Assembly (NCBI GenBank): GCA_002937655.1 | Contig: PTKH01000005.1 | Coordinates: 8,781-72,780, forward strand | Length of the DNA stretch: 64,000 nucleotides | Source: Alphaproteobacteria bacterium MarineAlpha9_Bin3 | GTDB lineage: Bacteria; Pseudomonadota; Alphaproteobacteria; TMED109 | Direction: 5' to 3' | In this document: piece after piece, positions 44,281 through 57,283 of the stretch | How positions within the stretch are numbered: position 1 is the first letter of the stretch | How the letters are laid out: each line of letters starts with the position of its first letter | Made by a program: the position numbers and the translations under genes | Notes under the pieces: generated by a model | What the model saw: only the letters and a program-made list of their open reading frames with translations | Database searches by the model: none | Told to the model about the DNA's origin: nothing

Positions 44281-46083
44281 ATGATTGATAAAAATAATAT
44301 TAGAAATTTTGCAATAATAGCTCATATAGACCATGGTAAGTCAACCTTATCTGACAGATTGATTGAGTTTTGTGACGCTATTAGTAATAGATTAATGAAA
44401 GATCAAATTCTTGATTCTATGGAAATAGAACGAGAAAGGGGAATAACTATTAAAGCTCAGACAATTCGTTTAGAATATAAAGCTTCTGATGGTAATAAGT
44501 ATATTTTAAATTTAATTGATACTCCAGGTCATGTTGATTTTTCTTATGAGGTTTCAAGGTCATTGGCTGCATGTGAAGGTGTAATATTATTAGTCGATGC
44601 AAGTCAGGGCGTGGAGGCACAAACTTTAGCGAATACTTGGTTAGCATTAGAGGCTGATTTAGAAATTATTCCTGTTTTAAATAAAGTTGATTTACCTGCA
44701 TCTGATCCAGAAAAAGTTAAGGCACAAATAAATGATTTAATTGGGCTAGATACTAAAAATGTATGTAATGTTTCTGGCAAAACTGGCGAAGGCGTTAAGG
44801 AGCTACTATCAGAAATTATAGATAATATTCCATCTCCAGTTGGAGATATTAATTATCCTTTAAAGGTTTTATTAATTGATGCATGGTATGATTCTTATTT
44901 AGGTGTGATGGTTCTCGTAAGAGTACATGATGGTACCTTAAAAAAAGGTATGAAAGTAACTTTAATGAGGTCTAAACGAGAATATCAAATTGAACAGGTA
45001 GGTATTTTAAATCCAAAACCAAAAATTGTAGAGAGTTTATCCGCAGGAGAAGTTGGTTTTATTACAGCGGCAATAAAAAATGTATCAGATGCATGGGTAG
45101 GAGACACAATTACTGAAATTAAAAACCCCGCTTTAAAAGCTCTACCAGGTTTTAAAGAGAGTATTCCAGTTGTTTTTTGCGGTTTATATCCTACAGATGC
45201 AGGAGAGTTTGATAAATTAAGAGAGTCGTTATCAAAGTTAAGGCTTAATGACACATCGTTTCATTTTGAAGTAGAGTCTAGTGCGGCATTAGGTTTAGGT
45301 TTTAGATGTGGGTTTTTAGGTTTGTTACATTTGGAAATAGTTCAAGAAAGGTTAGAAAGAGAGTTTGATTTAGATTTAGTTACCACAGCTCCTAGCGTTA
45401 TATATGATTTATATATGCATGATAATAAAGTATTAAAAATACATAACCCAGCAGACTGGCCAGATGTTACTAAAATTTCTAGTATTCAGGAACCATGGAT
45501 ACGAGCAACTATTTTTAGTCCGGATGAATATTTAGGAAAAATTTTAAGTCTTTGTAATGATAAAAGAGGAATACAGATAGAATTAAGTTATGTTGGAAAA
45601 AGAGTCATGCTTGTATATGATTTGCCTCTAAATGAAGTTGTATTTGATTTTAATGATACATTAAAATCCATTAGCAGGGGCTATGCTAGTTTTGATTATG
45701 AGATAAAAGATTATAAAAAAGGCGATTTAGTAAAGGTGAGTATGTTAATTAATGCAGAAAGTGTTGATAGTTTATCCTTTATAGTTCATAGAGGTAATGC
45801 TGATGGTAGAGCCAGAGCTATTTGTGAGAAGCTAAAACAATTAATTCCTCGACAACTATTTAAAATAGCAATTCAAGCTGCAATAGGAGGTAAAATAATA
45901 GCAAGAGAAACCATAAGTGCATTGAGAAAAGATGTGACTGCTAAATGCTATGGTGGAGATATTACTAGAAAGAAAAAGCTTTTAGAAAAACAGAAAAAAG
46001 GCAAGAAAAGAATGAAGCAGGTAGGTAATGTTGAAATTCCTCAAGAAGCTTTTTTAGCAGCATTAAGAATAGATACTACTTAA
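44281..46083 (+). CDS. lepA: translation elongation factor 4
   Basis: [18 protein letters not shown] and NKVD GTPase motifs; 600 aa, colinear with EF-4. Confidence 0.95.
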
Positions 46084-46358
46084 GACTTATATTTAATTCT
46101 TAATAATAAATATATAATAAAAAAAATAACAGTAAAAAAAAATACTGGTAACTCTAATATAGGAAGTATTATTTTAAACCATATGTCTGTATCAATTTTT
46201 AATTGAATATATGAGCTTTCTACAACTTTTTGTAGACCAATAAGTGAATTAACATGCAGTATTCTCCATATTTCACCGAGATTAATATTTGGCTTTTTAA
46301 GTGAGCAAAATAACAAAATAATAAAAATTAAAAAAAAAATATATTTAATTATTCTCAT
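46080..46358 (-). CDS. small membrane protein, unknown function
   Basis: 92 aa with two strongly hydrophobic segments. Its stop shares TTAA with the lepA stop. Confidence 0.4.
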
Positions 46359-46402
46359 ATTTTGTTATAGCTTTCATATATATAATTTAGGAGTAACAAT
46401 AA

Positions 46403-46768
46403 TTGTTAACTTATTTTCAAATACTTCAATTAGTATCTTTCGCATTTCTTATGTCTTTGGGACAACTATTATTTAAGAAAACTGCTTTGTCAATATCTTC
46501 TGAAGGAGGCTTGAACTTATATGAAGGAATTATGAAAGCTATGCTAGTGCCGTGGCTTTATATGGCTTTATTCGTTTATGCATTAGCAACAGTCTGTTGG
46601 TTATATATTTTACAAAGAATTCCATTATCAATAGCTTATCCTTTTTCTGCTCTTGCTATGATAATTGTTCCTGTCTTTGCAATGATTGTCTTTGGAGAAC
46701 GTTTGAATTATTCATATTGGATTGGTTTAGTTCTTATTCTATTAGGTATATCAATAATAGGTCAATAA
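46403..46768 (+). CDS. EamA/SMR-like four-helix transporter (ArnE/ArnF-like flippase subunit type)
   Basis: 121 aa, four TM helices, PLSIAYPF...GERL...G motif of EamA half-transporters. TTG start. Confidence 0.55.
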   Translation: MLTYFQILQLVSFAFLMSLGQLLFKKTALSISSEGGLNLYEGIMKAMLVPWLYMALFVYALATVCWLYILQRIPLSIAYPFSALAMIIVPVFAMIVFGERLNYSYWIGLVLILLGISIIGQ

Positions 46769-46772
46769 TATA

Positions 46773-46823
46773 TTGACGTTCATATAATGAACGATATATA
46801 ATAATTTTGTTCATTCTGTGAAC
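46773..46823 (+). promoter_or_regulatory. sigma-70-like promoter (TTGACG-N18-TATAAT) with two 15-bp palindromic operators
   Basis: TTGACG 46773-46778 and TATAAT 46797-46802. Perfect palindrome GTTCAT-ATA-ATGAAC at 46778-46792. Near-palindrome GTTCAT-TCT-GTGAAC at 46809-46823. Confidence 0.6.
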
Positions 46824-46851
46824 GATAAATAAATTATGTAAGATTGTTATA

Positions 46852-47460
46852 ATGAATAATCATGAAATAAAAAAAGATGATATGACTTTGAATGTTTTAT
46901 CTGCAGTAGATGCTGATAGTCAGATTACTCAAAGATCATTAGCTGCTGAATTGGGAATAGCTTTAGGTTTGACAAATGCCTATTTTAAAAAATGTGTTGA
47001 TAAAGGATTAGTAAAAATCAAGCAAATACCTAAAAAAAGGTATTCATATTATCTTACAAAAAAGGGTTTTACTGAAAAAGCTAGGTTATCTGCTGAATAT
47101 TTAAAATATTCTTTTAATTTTTTAAAAAATACAAAAGTAGAATGCGAAAAAATTATTAAGATATGTATTGATAATAATAATTTATCGATAGTTTTGTCTG
47201 ATAAGTCTGACTTTGCAGAAATCTTAATTTTAAGCGCATTAGACACTAAAGTTGATATTATTGGTGTATTAGGAAATGAAGAAAATAAGTATTGTGGAAA
47301 AAAAGTAATAAAATCTTTAAAAAATATTAATAATGTAGATGTTATCATTATGACTAAATTAGAGAATTCAAATTCTAGATTTGATTACCTTAAAAAGAAA
47401 TATAAAAAATATAATATTATAATTCCACAATTTCTAAATATAGATGGTGAGGAAACATAA
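46852..47460 (+). CDS. winged-helix (MarR-like) transcriptional regulator with Rossmann-like C-terminal domain
   Basis: ITQRSLAAELGIALGLTNAYFKKCVDKGLVK...YYLTKKGFTEKARL wHTH. The C-terminal alternating beta/alpha pattern (IVLSDKSDFAE...VDIIGVLGNEE...VDVIIMT) resembles NeuD/sugar-transferase N-domains. Confidence 0.65.
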   Translation: MNNHEIKKDDMTLNVLSAVDADSQITQRSLAAELGIALGLTNAYFKKCVDKGLVKIKQIPKKRYSYYLTKKGFTEKARLSAEYLKYSFNFLKNTKVECEKIIKICIDNNNLSIVLSDKSDFAEILILSALDTKVDIIGVLGNEENKYCGKKVIKSLKNINNVDVIIMTKLENSNSRFDYLKKKYKKYNIIIPQFLNIDGEET

Positions 47461-47960
47461 TGAAGTATTGGTATGTTATCTATACTATTCATAATCAAGA
47501 ATTTAGGGCTGAAGCTAATTTAAAAAAACAAGGCTTCCAGCTATATTTGCCAAAATATATAGGTACTAGAAAGCATGCTAGAAAAGTAGATAAAATATTA
47601 AAGCCCTTATTTCCAAGATATTTATTTATAAAATTAGATCTATCAATAGATAATATCTCAAAAATTAACTACACTTTTGGAGTAAATAAATTAGTTACTT
47701 TAGGAACTGAGCCTAATATACTACCTGATTTTATAGTTGATAACCTTAAGGCGCAAGAAGATAAAAATGGTAATCTAGATTCTATAATTAATTCAATATA
47801 TAAAATGGGAGAAAATGTAAAATTTAGTAATGGAGTTTTACAAGGAAATAATGCAGTGTTTATGGGTAAAACTGAGAAGCAAAGAGTTTTTGTGTTATTA
47901 GATATTCTTGGAAGAAAGCTTAATATAGCTGTACCTCCTATGTCTTTACAACCTCTGTGA
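47460..47960 (+). CDS. rfaH: RfaH-like specialised NusG paralogue (transcription antiterminator)
   Basis: 166 aa. MKYWYVIY N-terminus, KPLFPRYLFIKLD, and a C-terminal KOW-like GENVKFSNGVLQGNNAVF...RVFVLLDILG. Colinear by eye with E. coli RfaH (162 aa). Start overlaps the regulator stop (TAATG). Confidence 0.7.
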   Translation: MKYWYVIYTIHNQEFRAEANLKKQGFQLYLPKYIGTRKHARKVDKILKPLFPRYLFIKLDLSIDNISKINYTFGVNKLVTLGTEPNILPDFIVDNLKAQEDKNGNLDSIINSIYKMGENVKFSNGVLQGNNAVFMGKTEKQRVFVLLDILGRKLNIAVPPMSLQPL

Positions 47961-47967
47961 GTACAAT

Positions 47968-48264
47968 ATGAACTATGAAAACGAAAATTTTATAGAATTA
48001 ATTTATGGTTCAATAAAGGAAGTAAATAAGCAACTTGCTCCTGAAAATCATTTAAAATTAAAAGTTAATGAGTATTTAGTTTCTGAGAAAAGTCCAATAG
48101 ATTCTTTAGGGTTAATTACTTTATTAATTCACATAGAAGGAGAAATTAGTAAAAACTTTAATCAAAATATAAACTTAATAGAAGAAGAGCTCATTACTGA
48201 AGTGGATACTCCATTTGAAACTATAGGTAGTCTTGCTGAATGGCTTAAAGATAATGTTAAATAA
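47968..48264 (+). CDS. acyl carrier protein
   Basis: 98 aa, acidic, with the phosphopantetheine attachment motif IDSLGLI. Confidence 0.75.
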   Translation: MNYENENFIELIYGSIKEVNKQLAPENHLKLKVNEYLVSEKSPIDSLGLITLLIHIEGEISKNFNQNINLIEEELITEVDTPFETIGSLAEWLKDNVK

Positions 48265-49915
48265 ATATCATTTAATAGCAGACTTTAATATAGAACCTCT
48301 TAAAGGTTTTATTTTAAATTTAGATAGGGAGGCTGAAGTTTCGATATCACCCTACGGCCAGGTGATGCAAGAAATTTATAAAAAAGAAGTTTTTGATAAT
48401 AAAAATGTGATTTTATGGACTTTTATACAAAGTGTTATTCCTAGTTTTTCTGAAGTTTTAAATTTAAATAAGTACAGTGAAAAAAATTGTTTACAAGAAG
48501 TTAAAAAATATAGTGAAGCAATAATCAATTTGTCAAAAAAACAAAAATTTGTTTTTTTAGTTTCTTGGACTTTAGAAGATAGTATTAGTTCTTATGGTCT
48601 TTTAGATTGGAAACCAGATATAGGAGTATCATATATTTTAGCTAAAATTAATATTTATCTTTCTGACCTATTGTCTAAATATAATAATATTTTTATATTA
48701 AATTCTAATTATTGGATACAAAATGCTGATAAGGTGGCACCTAAAATATGGTATGCCACCAAGGTACCTTATTCTCCTTCTGTATTTGATAATGCAGCAA
48801 AAGATATCTATTCTAGTTATCTAGCTCTTAATGGCTTAAATAAAAAAATAATTATATTAGATTTAGATAATACTTTATGGGGAGGAGTTGTAGGAGAATT
48901 AGGTATTGAAGGCGTAAATATTGGAGGCCATAATTTTATAGGAGAAGCTTATCAAGAATTTCAAAGAGCTTTATTAGCACTATCTAATAAAGGTATCCAG
49001 CTAGCAATAGTTAGTAAAAATGATGAGATTGTTGCATTGGAAGTAATTCAAGAACATGATGCTATGGTTTTAAGAAAAAATAATTTTTCAGGTTGGAAAA
49101 TAAATTGGAAAGATAAAGCTAGTAATATTAAAGCTCTTTTAGATGAATTAAATTTAGGTACTTCATCGGCCATATTTATTGATGATAGTCCAATAGAAAG
49201 AGATTGGGTAAAAAAAAGTTTACCTGAAGTTTTAGTACCTGATTGGCCTGATGACCCAGCACTTTATGTAAGAGCATTAGCTGAGCTTAATTGCCTACAT
49301 ACGGCTACAATCAGTAACGAGGATAGAAATCGTACAAAAATGTATGTAGCTGAAAGACAAAGAAAAGAAATTAAAAAAAACAAAGTTTCTTTGGATGATT
49401 GGCTAATTTCTTTAAATACAAAAGTTACAATTCATGCGCTAAATAATAATAATATTAAAAGAGTTACCCAACTATTTAATAAAACAAATCAATTAAATTT
49501 AAAAACTAGACGTTTATCAGAAAAAGAAATTTTAAAATGGCTTAATGAAAATAAACAAAATAAAAAAATGCACATAATAGAAGTAGAAGACAGATTAGGT
49601 AGTATAGGATTAGTAGGTATAATAAGTTTAGAATTAGTAAATAAAGAAGTAATTATAGAAGATTTTATATTAAGTTGTAGGGCAATGGGAAGAAAAATAG
49701 AGCACTTAATGTTATCTCTGGCTTATATTTTTGCAAAAGAAAAAGAAGCAAAAGTTATTAAGGCGGAATTTATTCCTACGAAAAGAAATAGACCAACTTA
49801 TGATATTTTTAATGATTCTATCTTTAAATATTCAAAAGATAATATATTTTTATCAAAAATTGATGCTCAAATAAATTTTCCTAAAGAATTATCTATAGAA
49901 AATAAATCGATTTAA
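48233..49915 (+). CDS. FkbH-like HAD-IIIC phosphatase/acyl-loading protein
   Basis: ILDLDNTLWGG (DxDxT), SKN and DD HAD motifs. C-terminal FILSCRAMGRKIE motif typical of FkbH-like domains. A more likely start is ATG 48254. Confidence 0.75.
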   Translation: MLNGLKIMLNKYHLIADFNIEPLKGFILNLDREAEVSISPYGQVMQEIYKKEVFDNKNVILWTFIQSVIPSFSEVLNLNKYSEKNCLQEVKKYSEAIINLSKKQKFVFLVSWTLEDSISSYGLLDWKPDIGVSYILAKINIYLSDLLSKYNNIFILNSNYWIQNADKVAPKIWYATKVPYSPSVFDNAAKDIYSSYLALNGLNKKIIILDLDNTLWGGVVGELGIEGVNIGGHNFIGEAYQEFQRALLALSNKGIQLAIVSKNDEIVALEVIQEHDAMVLRKNNFSGWKINWKDKASNIKALLDELNLGTSSAIFIDDSPIERDWVKKSLPEVLVPDWPDDPALYVRALAELNCLHTATISNEDRNRTKMYVAERQRKEIKKNKVSLDDWLISLNTKVTIHALNNNNIKRVTQLFNKTNQLNLKTRRLSEKEILKWLNENKQNKKMHIIEVEDRLGSIGLVGIISLELVNKEVIIEDFILSCRAMGRKIEHLMLSLAYIFAKEKEAKVIKAEFIPTKRNRPTYDIFNDSIFKYSKDNIFLSKIDAQINFPKELSIENKSI

Positions 49916-49916
49916 A

Positions 49917-50933
49917 ATGGTTCAAATAGAATTATGTAGTAATAAGGAGATTATTAATTTACAAAAGTTTATTAATAATCATTGGAAGAGTAATCATATT
50001 TTATCAAAAAATATTACTTTACTTAATTGGATGTATAAAAGATGTGAGGGTCTTAATTTTCTTTTAGCAAAAAAGAATAAAAAAATAATAGGCATTTTAG
50101 GTTTTATTAAAAATTCTAATTTTAATAATAATGATTTTATTAGAGATATTATATGGCTAGCACTATGGAAAGTGGTTGAAGAGAAAGCTTATCCCGGATT
50201 AGGTATAATAATGCTTAAAAAATTGGAAAAAATTAATCCAAATATAGATATTGCTGTTTTAGGTATAAATAAATCTTTACCACCAGTATTTAGTGCATTG
50301 AAATATTATTCAGCTACAATGGAACATTATTATATTGTTAATCCTAAGGTTAAAAATTTTTCTATAATTAATATAGATAGGAAAAATAAAATACCTTATC
50401 CTAAGTTACCTAAACATAAAATAATATATAAAAGGATTTATAGAAAAGAGCTTTTATCAGGTAATTACAATTATTACTCTAATAATTTTACTTGTTACAA
50501 GTCTTCTGCTTTCTTTATAAATAAATATCTTGATCACCCTATTTATAAATATAAAATTTTCCATATAGAAAATAGCTCTAGGCAATTTGCCTTAATAGTT
50601 ATAAGAAAAATAAGTATAAATAACACAAATGTTATAAGAATTGTAGATTTTGAAGGAGATGAAGCACTCATAGCATATATTGGAGGTTTTTTATTAAATT
50701 TATTAGACTCAGAAAATGCTGAGTATATTGATTTTTTACAATATGGAATAAATAAGAGTTATTTTTTTGATGCTGGCTTTAAATTATTAAATTATAATCA
50801 AAGAGATATTGTTCCAAATTACTTTGAACCTTTTGTTAAAGAAAATATAAATTTATTGTTTGCGTATAAAACCCAGCCAAGCAATAATATTAGAATTTTT
50901 AAAGCAGATGGTGATCAAGATAGACCAAACTGA
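49917..50933 (+). CDS. hypothetical protein (possible acyltransferase partner of the ACP/FkbH pair)
   Basis: 338 aa with no motif I can name. Tightly packed 1 nt after the FkbH-like gene. Confidence 0.3.
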   Translation: MVQIELCSNKEIINLQKFINNHWKSNHILSKNITLLNWMYKRCEGLNFLLAKKNKKIIGILGFIKNSNFNNNDFIRDIIWLALWKVVEEKAYPGLGIIMLKKLEKINPNIDIAVLGINKSLPPVFSALKYYSATMEHYYIVNPKVKNFSIINIDRKNKIPYPKLPKHKIIYKRIYRKELLSGNYNYYSNNFTCYKSSAFFINKYLDHPIYKYKIFHIENSSRQFALIVIRKISINNTNVIRIVDFEGDEALIAYIGGFLLNLLDSENAEYIDFLQYGINKSYFFDAGFKLLNYNQRDIVPNYFEPFVKENINLLFAYKTQPSNNIRIFKADGDQDRPN

Positions 50934-51013
50934 AAGTAATTAAGTTTTTTACAGAAATTTATTTAATTAAAAAGAAAACTTTAATATTTTTAAATTTAAA
51001 AGAGAAATCAATT

Positions 51014-52006
51014 ATGAAGAATAAACTTACTATAATTATGTACCATTATGTAAGGCCTATAAAAGGCTCTAAATTTCCTAATATTAAAGGCCTAGAGTTA
51101 GAAGAATTTGAAAATCAAATAGAATATATAAGTAAGTATTATAATGTAGTTTCTACAAATGATTATATAGACTCCGAAAAATCAGGAGATACTTTAGGAA
51201 AAAATTCACTTATACTGTCTTTTGATGATGGTTATGCTGATCACTATGATTATGTTTTACCAGTATTAAAAAGGTATAATATGAAAGGTATATTTTTTCC
51301 AGTTGGAAAACCTAGTATTGAAAGGTCTATACTAGATGTAAATAAGATACATTTTATTTTGAATGCTACAAAAGATTTCAAAGAGGTGATAAATTTTTTA
51401 GAAATGAAAATTTCTTCAATAATGAAAGACGGTTTTTATATAGAAAACCTAAGAAGTAAGTTTTATAAAAAAAATAGATTTGATATAGCAGAAGTAAATT
51501 ATATCAAAAGGGTGCTTCAATTAGGTTTACCTTTACAATATAGAGAACAATTAGTTAAAGAACTATTTGCAAAATATGTTTCTAAAGATGAAAAAGATTT
51601 TGCAAATGAGTTATATTTAAGTATAGATCAGCTAAAAGAAATGAGAAGCTATGGAATGGAAATTGGTAGTCATGGATACGAACATTTTTGGCTTGATAGT
51701 TTAAATTTTCTAGATCAGCAAAAAGATATAAAAAAATCTTTTTCTTTATTAAAGATGGTTCAAAATAAAGGAGATAAATTTTTCTTTTGTTATCCATATG
51801 GAGGATATAATAAAGATACCTTGGAAATATTAAATAGTTATAATTGTGCAGCGGGTTTTACATGTGACGTCGGAATATTTAATCCATCAATGTCAAATAT
51901 ATTGGAATTACCTAGATTAGATACAAACGATATGCCTAAAACTAAGAATGCTAGCATTATAGATTGGACTAAAAAAATAATTGATGAGACAAGATTAGAT
52001 GATTAA
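51014..52006 (+). CDS. polysaccharide deacetylase (NodB homology domain)
   Basis: LSFDDGYADHYDYVLPVLKRYNMKGIFF and GSHGYEH motifs. Confidence 0.8.
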   Translation: MKNKLTIIMYHYVRPIKGSKFPNIKGLELEEFENQIEYISKYYNVVSTNDYIDSEKSGDTLGKNSLILSFDDGYADHYDYVLPVLKRYNMKGIFFPVGKPSIERSILDVNKIHFILNATKDFKEVINFLEMKISSIMKDGFYIENLRSKFYKKNRFDIAEVNYIKRVLQLGLPLQYREQLVKELFAKYVSKDEKDFANELYLSIDQLKEMRSYGMEIGSHGYEHFWLDSLNFLDQQKDIKKSFSLLKMVQNKGDKFFFCYPYGGYNKDTLEILNSYNCAAGFTCDVGIFNPSMSNILELPRLDTNDMPKTKNASIIDWTKKIIDETRLDD

Positions 52007-52625
52007 AAAAAGAATAGGAATTATTAATTATGGAATGGGAAATATTCATTCAGTTTATAATGCACTATTATCATTAGGTATAGAATCGATTGTAACAAAT
52101 AATAAAAAAGAATTGCATAGTTGTGATGCATTTATTCTTCCTGGAGTTGGTGCTTTTCCTAATGCGATAAAAAATTTATTAAAATTAGATTTAGTAGATG
52201 AGATAAAAAACCAGGTTTTAAATAAAAATAAAAATATATTGGGGATATGTCTTGGGATGCAGTTATTTGCAGATTACTCAGAAGAAGGTGAATTCAATGA
52301 GGGTTTATCATTGATTCCTGGAAAAGTTATAGATTTAAGCAGAAAGATAACATATAGAGTTCCACACATAGGTTGGAATAGTTTGCTAATTAATGCTAAC
52401 TCTCCTTTATTTGAAGGAATACCTGAGAAACAAGATTTTTATTTCGTGCATAGATATTACTTTGATTGCCATAAGAAATATATTTTAGCTAATACTTCAT
52501 ATGAAATGATGGTAACTTCAGTCATAAATCATAATAATATATACGGGGTGCAATTTCATCCTGAAAGAAGTCATAATACTGGAATAAAATTATTATATAA
52601 TTTTACTCAATTAGAGAATAAATAG
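51999..52625 (+). CDS. imidazole glycerol phosphate synthase HisH-like glutamine amidotransferase (WbuY type)
   Basis: GICLGMQ catalytic Cys and VQFHPERS. Located in a glycan operon beside a HisF-like gene. Confidence 0.8.
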   Translation: MIKKRIGIINYGMGNIHSVYNALLSLGIESIVTNNKKELHSCDAFILPGVGAFPNAIKNLLKLDLVDEIKNQVLNKNKNILGICLGMQLFADYSEEGEFNEGLSLIPGKVIDLSRKITYRVPHIGWNSLLINANSPLFEGIPEKQDFYFVHRYYFDCHKKYILANTSYEMMVTSVINHNNIYGVQFHPERSHNTGIKLLYNFTQLENK

Positions 52626-52636
52626 AGATTAATACG

Positions 52637-53515
52637 ATGTTAAAAAAAAGATTAATTGCATGTCTTCTAATTAAAGATAATTTAATAGTTCAAAGTGTAG
52701 GATTTAATAATTATTATCCTATAGGAAATCCAAGTTTTTCAATTGAATTCATATCAAGGTGGGATGTAGATGAAATTATTTTACTTGATATAACTCCAAA
52801 GAGTGAAAGAGTAAAAAGAGATTATACTCAATTAAAATTATTTATTAAAAAATGTTTTATACCAATTACTTTTGGAGGAGGAATTAGTTGTATAGAAGAT
52901 GTAAATGAAATAATAAAATCTGGAGCGGATAGAATTTCAATAAATTCAAATGCAATAAATAGTCCTGTATTGGTAGAGCAAATAGCTCGTATATATGGTG
53001 AGCAATGTATAGTTACTTCTATAGATTATAAAATTGAAAAAAATGGTGATAAGACAGTTTATAGTAACTCAGGAACAAAAAATACGGGATTAAGTTTATT
53101 GGATTGGGCTAAAAAATGCGAAAGCCTTGGTTCAGGAGAAATTTTACTAAATTCTATAGATAGAGATGGTAAAGGGCAGGGCTATGATATTGATACAATT
53201 AAAGAAGTTAGTAGCAGCGTGAATATTCCTGTAATTGCTTGCGGAGGTGTTGGTAAGTTTTCAGATTTTTCTGAAGCTATTTTAAAAGGTGGGGCATCTG
53301 CAGCTGCAGCTGCAAATATATTTCACTATGTAGAACACAGTACTATCATTGCAAAAGCAAATATGCTTAAAAGTGGAGTAAACATAAGACTTAATAAAAT
53401 TGCTCAATATTCGGATAGAAAATTTGATAAAAATGGAAGATTAATAATGTTAGATAATGATCAATTAGAAAAAGCAGACTGGGCTATAAGAGATAAAAAT
53501 GCAATATTGTACTAG
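52637..53515 (+). CDS. HisF-like cyclase subunit paralogue (WbuZ type)
   Basis: (beta/alpha)8 HisF pattern RLIACLLIKD...DVDEIILLDIT...GGGI...GADRISINS...ACGGVG. Confidence 0.8.
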   Translation: MLKKRLIACLLIKDNLIVQSVGFNNYYPIGNPSFSIEFISRWDVDEIILLDITPKSERVKRDYTQLKLFIKKCFIPITFGGGISCIEDVNEIIKSGADRISINSNAINSPVLVEQIARIYGEQCIVTSIDYKIEKNGDKTVYSNSGTKNTGLSLLDWAKKCESLGSGEILLNSIDRDGKGQGYDIDTIKEVSSSVNIPVIACGGVGKFSDFSEAILKGGASAAAAANIFHYVEHSTIIAKANMLKSGVNIRLNKIAQYSDRKFDKNGRLIMLDNDQLEKADWAIRDKNAILY

Positions 53516-54827
53516 ATGTTTATATCCTGAAAATCATCCCTATGGACTTATTTTTGATGAAGATGGTGTTTGTAGTGGGTGTCGTGTACATGAAGAAAAA
53601 GATATTTTAAATTGGTCGGAAAGATTAAATCTTTTAAAAAATATAGTAGCAGAAAATAAAAAGTATGTAAGTGGTAACAATTTTGATTGTATAGTTCCTG
53701 TATATGGAGGAGGAGATAGTTATTTTACGGTTCATGTGGTAAAAAATATATTAAAAATGAATCCTTTATTGGTTCATTATAATTCAGAGTTTAATACTAA
53801 AATGGGTATTAGAAATTTAGCAAATTTAGCTACAGTATTCGATTGTGATATGGTGACTTCTACTCTTGCCCCTTCTTTATTAAAGAGAATAACTAGAGCT
53901 ACAATGAAAAAATATGGAAATATGTATTGGCAGGTTTTAGCTGGAAGATATACATTTCCTGTACAAGTAGCGGTAAAGTATAGAATACCATTAATATTTT
54001 GGGGTGTACATCCCTGGTCAGATCAAACAGGCATGTTTCAACATATTAATGAAGTAGAAATGACAGAAAGGTGCAGGAAAGAGCATGGATTATTTGGTGT
54101 GTCTGCAGAAGATATAGTTGGTTTAGAGGGCTTGACAAGATCTGAAATGCAAAATTTTATTTACCCTTATGATAATGAGATAGAAGCAATAGGTGTAAGA
54201 GGAATATATTTAAGTAATTATATAAGATGGGATTCAAAAAAACAACATGAACAAATGATTGGTTTATATGGTTATGAAACTAACTTGCAACAAAGAACTT
54301 TTAACACTTATGAAGATATTCATTGTTTTCACTCAGCAGGAATTCATGATTATCTAAAATATATCAAGTTAGGTTATGGTAAAATAACTGATCATGCTAC
54401 CCGAGAAATAAGATTAAAAAGAATGACAAGAGCAGAAGGAATTAATTTAGTTAAAAACTTAAAACAGCAAGAACCAAAAGATTTAGAGATTTTTTTAAAT
54501 TGGGTTGAGTTTACGAGAGAAGAATTTAAAAATCTTTACTGGAATAGACGTGACACTAATATTTGGAAAAAAAATAAAAATGAAGAGTGGGCACTTAGAG
54601 ATAGTATTGAAAATTATAAAACAGGAGATCTTATAGAAAAAGTAAAGCTAGAAAAAATTGAAGATTGTAAATTTATATTAACAGAAAAGGCTGAGCCAGA
54701 TGATATCGAAAATAAATACTTACTTATGGGAAGAAATTATATAAATAAAGATAATTATGGAGCAATAAAGAACACTGTTAAGGGCGGAGGAATGACAAAA
54801 AGAAAATGGAAAGAAAGTTCATTATAA
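53499..54827 (+). CDS. N-acetyl sugar amidotransferase (PseA/WbpG/WbuX family), paralogue 1
   Basis: N-terminal Zn-ribbon CTRC...CSGC. PP-loop-like VPVYGGGDS, which departs from the canonical SGGKDS. Confidence 0.75.
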   Translation: MQYCTRCLYPENHPYGLIFDEDGVCSGCRVHEEKDILNWSERLNLLKNIVAENKKYVSGNNFDCIVPVYGGGDSYFTVHVVKNILKMNPLLVHYNSEFNTKMGIRNLANLATVFDCDMVTSTLAPSLLKRITRATMKKYGNMYWQVLAGRYTFPVQVAVKYRIPLIFWGVHPWSDQTGMFQHINEVEMTERCRKEHGLFGVSAEDIVGLEGLTRSEMQNFIYPYDNEIEAIGVRGIYLSNYIRWDSKKQHEQMIGLYGYETNLQQRTFNTYEDIHCFHSAGIHDYLKYIKLGYGKITDHATREIRLKRMTRAEGINLVKNLKQQEPKDLEIFLNWVEFTREEFKNLYWNRRDTNIWKKNKNEEWALRDSIENYKTGDLIEKVKLEKIEDCKFILTEKAEPDDIENKYLLMGRNYINKDNYGAIKNTVKGGGMTKRKWKESSL

Positions 54828-54842
54828 TTTGAGGAATATAAA

Positions 54843-55952
54843 GTGAGATATTGTAAAAGATGTGTTTTGCCTGATACAAAACCAGGTGTAGTAATAGATG
54901 AATCTGGTATCTGCAGTGTATGTAGAACGGTAGAAGCTAAAAAAACAATTGATTGGCAAAGACGTGATTTACAGTTGAGAGAAATATGTAATTCCATTAA
55001 AGGCAGAAACGGTCACGGGTATGATTGTATTGTTCCTGTCAGTGGAGGTAAAGATAGTATTTATCAAGTACATGCTATGAAAAATATTTATGGTTTAAGA
55101 GTTCTGGCAGTTAATATAAGTGCACATATTCATACTGTAGAGGGTATATTAAATCTTAATTCAATGATTGAAAACTTAGATGTAGACTTTATTAAAGTTG
55201 CAGTGCGGCCCAGCACACATAGAAAAATTAGAAAAATGGCATTAATAAAAGTTGGAAACCCAAATTTTGCAGAACATAGAATTGTTTTTTCAGCGGTAGC
55301 TCGAGCAGCCTTATTTTATAATGTCCCACTAGTAGTATGGGGAGAAGATATAGCAGTTGAATTTGGTGGTAATGTAGATAAAAAAAGTGAACCTGGCTCT
55401 GCTGAGGATATGATAAATAATGATTTATTTAGAGAAATAGGATTTGAAGAACTGATCGGAGATGAAATCAATCAAAATGAACTATTTTTTTATAAGAATC
55501 CTGAAAAGAGTCTTGTTAAGAAAGCTAATATAAAAAGTATTTATTTGGGGCATTATCATTGGTGGGATGGAACTAAGAATTATGAAGTAGCTAAAAAATA
55601 TGGATTTATTCCAAGAAAAGAAGGACCTCTCTCAGGAAATTATATTGATTATGATAACATAGATGAGCGATTATGTGAGATTCATCTTTGGTTCAAATTT
55701 ATAAAATTAGGTTTCTGGAGGCCAACAGACCATGTATGTTATAAAATATGGAATGGATATATGGAAAGAGAAGAGGCTGTAGAAATAGTGAATAAATTAC
55801 AATATGATTTCCCGACTGAATATTTTCAAGATTTCTTAGATTTTCACGATTTAAAAGAAGATGAATTTTGGGATATAGCAGAAAAATGGCGAAATAAAGA
55901 AATTTTTCATAAAGTTAATAATGAATGGAGATTAAAGAACGAATTAAGATAA
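54843..55952 (+). CDS. N-acetyl sugar amidotransferase (PseA/WbpG/WbuX family), paralogue 2
   Basis: GTG start. CKRC...CSVC Zn-ribbon and canonical PP-loop VPVSGGKDS. Confidence 0.8.
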   Translation: MRYCKRCVLPDTKPGVVIDESGICSVCRTVEAKKTIDWQRRDLQLREICNSIKGRNGHGYDCIVPVSGGKDSIYQVHAMKNIYGLRVLAVNISAHIHTVEGILNLNSMIENLDVDFIKVAVRPSTHRKIRKMALIKVGNPNFAEHRIVFSAVARAALFYNVPLVVWGEDIAVEFGGNVDKKSEPGSAEDMINNDLFREIGFEELIGDEINQNELFFYKNPEKSLVKKANIKSIYLGHYHWWDGTKNYEVAKKYGFIPRKEGPLSGNYIDYDNIDERLCEIHLWFKFIKLGFWRPTDHVCYKIWNGYMEREEAVEIVNKLQYDFPTEYFQDFLDFHDLKEDEFWDIAEKWRNKEIFHKVNNEWRLKNELR

Positions 55953-55993
55953 GGTTTTTTAATTATTACCAAAACTATTTTATTCACTTATGC

Positions 55994-56028
55994 TTGACGT
56001 TCATAATATGAACATAATATACTATAAT
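55994..56028 (+). promoter_or_regulatory. second copy of the TTGACG / GTTCAT-N3-ATGAAC promoter-operator cassette
   Basis: TTGACG 55994-55999. Palindrome GTTCAT-AAT-ATGAAC at 55999-56013. TATACT 56018-56023 has the same 18-nt spacing as the first cassette; TATAAT lies at 56023-56028. Confidence 0.6.
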
Positions 56029-56108
56029 TGCAAATTATTTGAAAATATTATCTAAGTAAATAATATTTTAATAAGTTGCTCTTGGGTTAATTTTAAATTC
56101 ACCCTAAT

Positions 56109-56120
56109 GGCGGTAGCGTG
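56109..56120 (+). promoter_or_regulatory. ops (operon polarity suppressor) element, exact GGCGGTAGCGTG
   Basis: Perfect match to the enterobacterial ops consensus GGCGGTAGnnTG. On the coding strand of the leader, followed by T6, 107 nt before ATG 56228. Confidence 0.65.
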
Positions 56121-56227
56121 TTTTTTCATAAATATTTTTATTAAAGTAAAATTTTAATTTTTAAATTGTAAAAAATTAAAATTACGAAAGATATATAAAC
56201 TTATAATAGAATGGAAGAATATTTAAA

Positions 56228-57283
56228 ATGTATAAAAATATACCAAAAGATATTTCTTTTGTTAATAAAGAAAAATTATCCAAATATATAACATATTCAA
56301 ATTCATCGATAAAAGATGCGATGACTAAATTAAACCTTACTCTAGAATTATTTCAAATAATTCTGGATCAGGAAGGTAAATTTTTAGGAACTTTAACGGA
56401 TGGTGATATTAGAAGAGGTCTGCTTGCAGGCAGTGAAATTAATGATAATGTAATGAAATTTATTAATTCTAATCCTCTATTGGGAGAAATAAGTAAGGAA
56501 AGTGAAAATTTAAATACTTTAAACAAAGTAGATAGATATCCAATGTTTTTGCCTATAATTGATAAAAAATTTCTATTAGAAGGTATATTAATAAAAACTG
56601 AAATTACTGATATAAATCACGCTTTAATTGTTGCAGGAGGAATAGGCTCACGTTTAGGTGATTTAACAAAACATATACCTAAACCAATGCTAGAAGTAGA
56701 TGGAAAGCCTATACTAGAACATTGTATCAATAAATTAGAGGATGCTAATATTAGTACGATTTATGTTTCTGTTAATTATTTAAGTGAGCAAATTATTAAT
56801 TTTATAAAAAGTAAAAATTTTAAATCTAATATCATACCAGTAAAAGAAAATTCCAAATTAGGAACAATAGGTTCTTTATTTTTAATAAAAGAAGAAACTA
56901 ATTATCCATTATTAGTTATGAACGCTGATTTGGTTACAACATTATCTCTTTCAGCTTTAATGTCATTTTATAGAGCTGAAAACGTAGATGGTTTAATTAC
57001 TGCTGCAACTTTTGAGAGTAGTATACCTTTTGGCGTATTAAAATATAATAGTTTAGGTCAATTGGAAAGGATTGAAGAGAAGCCAATATCTAAAAATTTA
57101 ATAGCTGCAGGTGTATATATACTGAATAAAAATATTTCCTCATTAATTAAAAAAGAAGAGTTTATAGATATGCCAGAATTATTAGATAAAGCTATAAAAA
57201 ATGGATTAAATATAGGTGTTTTCCCAATACATGAAAAATGGACTGATATTGGAAGACCTGAAGATTATTTCAATATAAAGTAA
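56228..57283 (+). CDS. CBS-domain-containing sugar-phosphate nucleotidyltransferase (PtmE-like architecture)
   Basis: N-terminal CBS pair (GTLTDGDIRRGL). C-terminal IVAGGIGSRLGDLTKHIPKPML nucleotidyltransferase domain. Confidence 0.75.
   Translation: MYKNIPKDISFVNKEKLSKYITYSNSSIKDAMTKLNLTLELFQIILDQEGKFLGTLTDGDIRRGLLAGSEINDNVMKFINSNPLLGEISKESENLNTLNKVDRYPMFLPIIDKKFLLEGILIKTEITDINHALIVAGGIGSRLGDLTKHIPKPMLEVDGKPILEHCINKLEDANISTIYVSVNYLSEQIINFIKSKNFKSNIIPVKENSKLGTIGSLFLIKEETNYPLLVMNADLVTTLSLSALMSFYRAENVDGLITAATFESSIPFGVLKYNSLGQLERIEEKPISKNLIAAGVYILNKNISSLIKKEEFIDMPELLDKAIKNGLNIGVFPIHEKWTDIGRPEDYFNIK

Follow-up and report, generated by a model that had tools for sequence, protein, structure and literature searches.

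The palindromes in front of the regulator-rfaH operon described here are likely to be autoregulatory, probably repressive operators of the 202-aa protein encoded first in that operon, which joins a wHTH to a Rossmann-like domain. Positions refer to the window, i.e., the whole 64,000-nt stretch of DNA that was analysed. The 83-nt spacer before the regulator ATG at 46852 holds a near-consensus sigma-70-type promoter, whose -10 and +1 were assigned by consensus match. It agrees with the consensus at 11/12 positions and gave the top score of a promoter scan within 46000-48300. The elements of this promoter (promoter 1) and the first two genes behind it are as follows.

46773..46778, + strand: -35 hexamer of promoter 1, TTGACG, which shares its final G with the start of the operator 1 core.
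46777..46793, unstranded: operator 1, CGTTCAT-ATA-ATGAACG; the core GTTCA-N5-TGAAC lies within 46778-46792 and the site fills the -35/-10 spacer.
46797..46802, + strand: -10 hexamer of promoter 1, TATAAT, 18 nt 3′ of the -35.
46808..46824, unstranded: operator 2, TGTTCAT-TCT-GTGAACG; core 46809-46823, at about +1 to +15.
46852..47460, + strand: gene of the 202-aa regulator, which presumably reads the operators; the protein consists of a wHTH (HTH_24) at its N-terminus, then a long helix and then a Rossmann-like alpha/beta domain.
47460..47960, + strand: gene of an RfaH-like NusG paralogue of 166 aa; its start overlaps the regulator stop by 1 nt.

Re-reading of 46500-47100 showed the original prediction to be exact to the base for TTGACG, TATAAT, both palindromes and the ATG at 46852. 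It had put the first palindrome at 15 bp, which holds for the core (GTTCATATAATGAAC, GTTCAT-ATA-ATGAAC, 46778-46792), but the palindrome actually extends to 17 bp (46777-46793). The second core is GTTCATTCTGTGAAC (GTTCAT-TCT-GTGAAC, 46809-46823), and the two operators are 31 bp apart, centre-to-centre. In the SAR11-like clade operator 1 covers about -33 to -17 and operator 2 covers +1 to +15. An EamA-like gene ends 5 nt before the -35 of promoter 1 without a terminator, and read-through into the regulator operon is possible. An extended -10-like sequence, TGTTATAAT, overlaps the regulator ATG (46845-46853). We discarded it as a conserved element; it is absent from the 13-sequence spacer alignment described below and probably due to chance in 27% GC DNA.

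The window has a GC content of 26.8%, and AT-rich palindromes are common in such DNA. A search of the 64-kb window with GTTCATNNNATGAAC at ≤1 mismatch yielded three matches vs. 0.17 expected, and none of 100 shuffles reached three. At ≤2 mismatches five were found vs. 3.9 expected, the two extra matches being background. The window palindromes are not due to chance, which is excluded by these shuffles as well as by the site density and the repeat enumeration presented below.

We found 1596 homologues of the regulator. A profile-guided scan with one genome per species gave 80 loci with regulator identities of 34-49%, almost all of them from Alphaproteobacteria outside SAR11 (Rhodospirillales, Hyphomicrobiales, Kiloniellales and others). 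Another 13 close loci (70-78% identity) came from a metagenome scan, bringing the total to 93 related loci with 26-71% GC. The closer regulator homologues are labelled Pelagibacterales, and a cluster look-up of them returned MAG sources only and no cultured SAR11 strain. The pairing of regulator and rfaH that had been proposed is conserved, a NusG/RfaH paralogue being found directly 3′ of the regulator in 76/80 genome loci.

Loss of the palindromes from orthologous spacers had been named as an outcome that would speak against the original prediction. Usable upstream DNA was available for 88 of the 93 loci, and scoring of the core GTTCA-N5-TGAAC at ≤1 mismatch revealed at least one site upstream of the regulator in 87/88 loci and at least two in 71, so the palindromes are conserved. 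In 67/88 loci a site is directly preceded by TTGAC. The longer form GTTCAT-N3-ATGAAC (≤2 mismatches) is present in 77/79 genome loci, regardless of spacer GC (0.26-0.71). In 23.5 kb of regulator-upstream DNA we counted 120 exact cores vs. 16 in the remaining 1.26 Mb of the loci, which corresponds to 5.1 vs. 0.013 sites per kb, or a ∼400-fold difference. When all 5-mer inverted repeats with spacers of 0-10 were enumerated, GTTCA/N5 ranked first (81/87 loci). The next entries were shifted versions of GTTCA/N5, and the best repeat in control DNA was found in five loci.

The promoter elements around operator 1 are kept as well. An alignment of the window spacer with 12 SAR11-like spacers is invariant in TTGAC, the four half-sites and the TAT of the -10, and in nothing else; the flanks and the central bases of the palindromes drift. 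Across the wider set, the hexamer 5-10 nt past operator 1 reads T (59/67), A (58/67), n, n, n, T (57/67). As this TAnnnT lies at a fixed offset from operator 1, the -10 and the 18-nt spacer are conserved too, and TTGAC and TAnnnT thus keep fixed distances, in agreement with the promoter originally proposed. A scan of viral_contigs with TTGACGTTCA-N5-TGAAC gave 88 matches, by our estimate about as many as expected by chance, of which only three adjoin a regulator homologue.

A matrix built from 167 distinct sites gives the 17-bp consensus Y-GTTCA-Y-N3-R-TGAAC-R. Departures from this consensus are non-compensatory in 144 cases and compensatory in 25, which fits base-specific protein contacts and not an RNA stem. 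This bears on the idea that the palindromes act as a hairpin in the 5′ leader RNA, operator 2 being probably transcribed and able to form a 6-bp stem. Operator 1, however, lies upstream of any plausible start site, and the half-site sequence itself, beyond pairing, is invariant from 26% to 71% GC. Rfam models, JUMPstart among them, did not match anywhere in 45800-57000 at E ≤ 1. We regard an explanation at the RNA level, or by chance, as already effectively refuted and leave it almost no probability.

The spacing within the site is fixed at N5, which places the half-site centres 10 bp apart, or one helical turn. The spacing between sites varies. Tandem operators are 22-25 bp apart (mode 23) in most Alphaproteobacteria and 30-31 bp apart in the SAR11-like clade, so that their helical phasing differs between the clades (23 vs. 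31 bp). Two to four units often form an array, and in 23 loci a single site is present. Since the intra-site N5 is fixed and the inter-site spacing variable, the 15-17-bp palindrome is the likely binding unit.

From the distribution of the sites we infer that the 202-aa protein binds them, as had been predicted. The sites are almost confined to the regulator's own promoter and neighbouring glycan promoters. Two Chelatococcus plasmids are particularly informative in this respect, as they carry the regulator ahead of gmd-fcl and O-antigen genes and lack an adjacent rfaH. An orthologue of the regulator is also known from the cultured Chelatococcus daeguensis TAD1 (WP_063188699.1, plasmid pTAD1). 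Their regulator-upstream DNA reads GTTCACGGCGTGAAC...cTTGAC followed by GTTCACGCCGTGAA(C/T), i.e., TTGAC joined to GTTCAC-GCC-GTGAAC plus a second copy. The operators are thus retained without an adjacent rfaH, and the motif therefore follows the regulator and not RfaH, which supports the 202-aa protein as the probable reader.

A second line of evidence comes from the short MarR_EPS proteins of Rhodobacterales plasmids, which share the wHTH head and end after a coiled-coil helix. Q27, G35, G39, K51-G52, K55 and the wing R63-Y-x-Y-x-L-T-x-x-G72 are invariant in the shared head, and N42 is conserved in at least 90%. In four of five loci CGTTCA-N4-TGAACG is found upstream of the protein's own MarR_EPS gene. 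This would be explained if the shared wHTH head recognises one and the same half-site and the spacing changes with the dimer, and it suggests that the MarR_EPS loci form a sister regulon with the same logic. The MarR_EPS genes of these five loci (L095-L099) follow the motifs at distances of about 85-120 nt and 20-40 nt. In all five, the leader of the MarR_EPS gene itself holds an ops-like core, GTGCGG(T/C)AGCC, and in the only locus viewed widely, that of Sulfitobacter indolifex (L095), a NusG-family gene is found nearby.

The operators might instead belong to another conserved alphaproteobacterial regulator, e.g., LexA, with the wHTH gene merely regulated. The alphaproteobacterial LexA/SOS box is the direct repeat GTTC-N7-GTTC, and the GTTC-N7-GAAC core of the palindromes is superficially like it. 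Yet the direct repeat (GTTC-N7-GTTC or GAAC-N7-GAAC) is present in 0/87 upstream regions and the inverted form in 86/87. The near-restriction of the sites to the regulator and neighbouring glycan promoters also argues against a foreign binder, as does the change from N5 to N4 spacing with the architecture of the regulator while the wHTH head is conserved. We consider such a binder very improbable and return to the 202-aa protein as the likely reader.

The original prediction placed this protein among the MarR-type regulators. The label fits only loosely, as Pfam MarR stays below threshold and there is an extra Rossmann-like C-terminal domain, which MarR proteins do not have. In Pfam only HTH_24 passes (38.4 vs. 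21.9, residues 9-55), and MarR_2 reaches 16.5 bits vs. a cutoff of 27, which leaves the protein outside Pfam MarR (PF01047/PF12802). It also falls outside NCBIfam MarR_EPS (TIGR04176), which it matches over residues 8-100 only, with 64.4 bits vs. a cutoff of 88. The best PDB sequence match is a MarR protein (E = 0.0099). The single-domain plan of MarR proteins, ∼140-160 aa with the wHTH between N- and C-terminal dimerisation helices, does not describe the 202-aa protein.

The AlphaFold model has a mean pLDDT of 74.7. It predicts a helix at residues 70-107 and an alpha/beta domain at 110-190 (pLDDT ∼90), and the wHTH is poorly resolved (pLDDT 33-50 for residues 1-40). A Foldseek search of this model vs. 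PDB gave nothing at E < 0.01 and only generic Rossmann-like local matches (DapB, an RCK domain, a CoA-binding-like protein). With the C-terminal domain cropped out, PDB profile and Pfam searches returned noise only, CoA_binding_3 matching one of 11 members at E = 0.011. Thus, the Foldseek, PDB profile and Pfam searches found no recognisable ligand site in this domain. The conserved residues L115-S-D117, E123, G138, G141, D163, T168 and R176 nevertheless suggest a possible pocket. A Rex-type redox repressor was considered and rejected, as neither the PDB profile searches nor the top 50 Foldseek matches contained Rex and the position of the GxGxxG NAD(H) loop reads LSDxS.

The sign of the regulation we infer from the geometry of the sites. 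The promoter is near consensus (11/12, with cTTGAC and TAnnnT conserved), and no activator should therefore be needed; given a strong promoter and both sites occupied, autorepression of the regulator-rfaH operon is expected. Outside the SAR11-like clade, most lineages have operator 2 directly at the 3′ end of the -10 or overlapping it. The same protein could in principle use the same sites as an activator or dual regulator, reshaping the 18-nt spacer in a MerR-like way or countering silencing of the AT-rich glycan island. The conservation of an 18-nt spacer instead of the optimal 17 would fit this. So would six Pelagibius/Kiloniellales loci (L028, L046, L055, L066, L067 and L077) with a single palindrome immediately upstream of acTTGACa, centred at about -45, which is an activator-like position and not an obviously repressive one. 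Some MarR-type regulators of exopolysaccharide genes reportedly act as activators, e.g., WggR/ExpG of Sinorhizobium meliloti. On the other hand, TTGAC and the -10 are near consensus, unlike in activator-dependent promoters, and most lineages have operator 2 over the edge of the -10 or over the start site. The regulator has no MerR Pfam match and falls outside the MerR family; MerR-type promoters have -35/-10 spacers of 19-20 nt, and both window promoters have one of 18 nt. Activation is therefore an unlikely reading, and we proceed with repression as the probable one.

The regulator stop TAA shares one base with the rfaH start ATG (TAATG, 47458-47462), and this overlap implies translational coupling of the two genes. 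The RfaH-like paralogue matches the Pfam NusG N-terminal domain with 68.5 bits vs. a cutoff of 22.2; its best NCBIfam match is TIGR01955 RfaH, with 122.2 bits vs. an equivalog cutoff of 144.5. Family scans of the genes behind promoter 1 identified, after the 202-aa wHTH protein and the RfaH-like NusG paralogue, an ACP-like ORF, an FkbH-domain protein, a polysaccharide deacetylase and a HisH/HisF-like pair.

The original prediction described two operators. Both are there, but it overlooked a third, perfect copy and an ops element. The third site lies ∼9 kb downstream of promoter 1 in the 275-nt gap between two co-directional gene strings, in a second promoter (promoter 2) with these elements.

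55994..55999, + strand: -35 hexamer of promoter 2, TTGACG, fused to operator 1′.
55998..56014, unstranded: operator 1′, CGTTCAT-AAT-ATGAACA, which lies within the promoter 2 spacer; its core (55999-56013) is perfect.
56018..56023, + strand: -10 hexamer of promoter 2, TATACT, after an 18-nt spacer; its offset from the operator is as in promoter 1.
56084..56120, + strand: leader element with hairpin arms GGGTTAA/TTCACCC, then the ops core GGCGGTAGCGTG (56109-56120).

Promoter 2 precedes genes for a sugar nucleotidyltransferase, a PIG-L deacetylase, an ABC exporter and a PseB-like dehydratase; both gene strings of the window are surface-glycan operons. The exact sequence GGCGGTAGCGTG, which we take to be the canonical RfaH ops core, lies on the + strand 110 nt past operator 1′ and is preceded by TTCACCC (56098-56104). 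An ops core of this sequence is canonical for RfaH (PMC7593976, PMC2864571). The leader of operon 2, a long operon, thus contains the ops sequence GGCGGTAGnnTG, and the first gene (56228) begins 108 nt later. The whole hairpin-ops element of the window reads TTCACCCTAATGGCGGTAGCGTG; its predicted RNA fold is no more stable than shuffles (z = -0.40). Operon 1 of the window has no ops, although RfaH is encoded there. Together, the third operator and the ops element show that the regulon reaches beyond autoregulation. A degenerate operator 2′ (GCAAATTATTTGAAA, 56031-56045) was discarded because its left half-site is too poor.

Promoter 2 is not kept at the same position in the closest contigs, L087 and L081. 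L087 diverges at the preceding stop codon, and L081 continues directly into another ORF. Comparison of window positions 55952-55994 showed that the homology to L087:10797 (95%) and L081:20462 (82%) stops near the stop codon of a 369-aa ORF. Promoter 2 and operon 2 are thus specific to the window with respect to these contigs, which places the operator-ops unit at a cassette junction of a variable glycan island.

The same unit, an operator-bearing promoter followed after ∼110-120 nt by a hairpin and GCGGTAGC, recurs in unrelated lineages. Examples, with the positions of the operator and of the ops-like element, are as follows.

L007: operator 2760, ops-like element 2879.
L014: operator 12417, ops-like element 12539.
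L018: operator 12385, ops-like element 12504.
L041: operator 11200, ops-like element 11320.

Further extra sites within the loci are found in other promoter-like contexts ahead of ops elements. In about 40 loci, ops-like GCGGTAGC elements with the consensus TTTCACCCGGACTGCGGTAGCGTGG lie 60-130 nt past rfaH. The canonical GGCGGTAG is absent from most high-GC loci, and the relaxed GCGGTAGC search is the informative one. A composite leader with hairpin arms GGGTGA/TCACCC and then an ops-like core was seen across the Alphaproteobacteria, e.g., in L002, L007, L012, L013 and L017. From its sequence, the hairpin-ops leader looks like an alphaproteobacterial counterpart of JUMPstart/ops.

In the mechanism that we propose, a wHTH dimer would set its two recognition helices in successive major grooves and read the half-sites 10 bp apart. 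Two bound dimers would cover about -33 to +15 and exclude RNA polymerase, and the 202-aa protein would in this way keep down the production of both itself and the co-translated RfaH paralogue. The regulator would further gate initiation at the glycan-island promoters, promoter 2 included, and RfaH, in a supply set by the regulator, would secure elongation through the long operon via the ops leader. Signals probably enter through the Rossmann-like C-terminal domain, with DNA release depending on a ligand, so that the 202-aa protein is presumably under ligand control.

Extended to the class, this describes a two-tier switch for surface-glycan islands, in which a ligand-sensing wHTH-Rossmann repressor gates all island promoters with an operator and rations a cis-encoded RfaH that licenses elongation via a hairpin-ops element. 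We put this forward tentatively and rate its chances at somewhat under even. SAR11-like genomes carry very few transcription factors. If true, the switch would in these genomes act as the master control of the cell-surface island, which is hypervariable and shapes phage susceptibility, and the operator code GTTCA-N5-TGAAC would make the regulon readable directly from metagenomes.

The mechanism, an autoregulated wHTH protein with operators over the core promoter, is ordinary and of the textbook kind; the regulon is new and class-wide. Escherichia coli MarR binds marO as a wHTH dimer at short palindromes, with one site in the -35/-10 region and a second downstream. In MarR autorepressors the regulator comes first in the controlled operon and DNA release is ligand-dependent. 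The window palindromes lie on the core promoter of the regulator's own gene, the first of its operon, and palindromes in this place are conserved in 87/88 loci. The 202-aa protein differs from MarR in its N-terminal wHTH, long helix and ∼95-aa Rossmann-like domain without Pfam or PDB match. With MarR_EPS (TIGR04176) it shares a homologous wHTH head (42% identity over residues 9-85), the association with polysaccharide genes and NusG paralogues, and the half-sites CGTTCA/TGAACG. Compared with MarR_EPS (∼105-120 aa), it has roughly double the length and an additional domain at the C-terminus, uses N5 instead of N4 and is translationally coupled to rfaH.

Bacteroides capsule loci have as their first two genes UpxY, a NusG-like antiterminator, and a second regulator, UpxZ, which is a trans-inhibitor of the UpxY proteins of other loci. 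Here, too, a surface-glycan locus opens with a NusG-like antiterminator and a second regulator setting which locus is expressed, but unlike UpxZ the 202-aa protein is a wHTH protein with operators, and the sequences are unrelated. The match to the UpxY model (72.8 bits) is below the cutoff of 100.

The enterobacterial RfaH/ops system (PMC7593976, PMC2864571) is similar in its RfaH-like NusG paralogue, the exact GGCGGTAGCGTG in the leader of a long sugar operon and the stem-loop before it; a stem-loop preceding ops has been noted for JUMPstart (PMC2864571). Unlike in E. coli, where rfaH stands alone, the window rfaH is encoded in cis and co-transcribed with a DNA-binding regulator under shared operators. 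A location next to the LPS operons that they control has been noted for RfaH orthologues, without a partner regulator (PMC13015549), and the papers on RfaH evolution make no mention of a partner wHTH. In the searched literature we found no description of the operator GTTCA-N5-TGAAC, of the wHTH plus Rossmann-like architecture, or of a near-universal coupling of regulator, RfaH paralogue and cis ops in Alphaproteobacteria.

The module thus appears to combine an autoregulated wHTH repressor with RfaH/ops control. It provides a precise cis-regulatory code, Y-GTTCA-Y-N3-R-TGAAC-R fused to the -35, together with a candidate reader for alphaproteobacterial polysaccharide/LPS islands, and this code covers SAR11-like marine lineages, which are difficult to culture and poorly understood in their regulation. 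In most cases an alphaproteobacterial RfaH paralogue shares its transcript with a dedicated DNA-binding regulator and has an ops-like element of its own behind it, and this arrangement bears on the control of cis-acting RfaH orthologues.

The surroundings of the regulator are partly shared between the window and the Pelagibacterales MAG L002. Both have the order lepA, small EamA/SMR-like membrane protein, regulator and rfaH, in the following segments.

Window, 46403-46768 and 44281-46083: segments syntenic with L002.
L002, 7432-9934: the corresponding segment.

In L002 the order lepA, EamA-like gene, regulator and rfaH continues into ops. A second promoter of this locus, TTGACGTTCATTATATGAACATGATATAATGTTCATTATGTGAAC, drives a 494-aa ORF, which, judged from its sequence by eye, is presumably NeuB-like.
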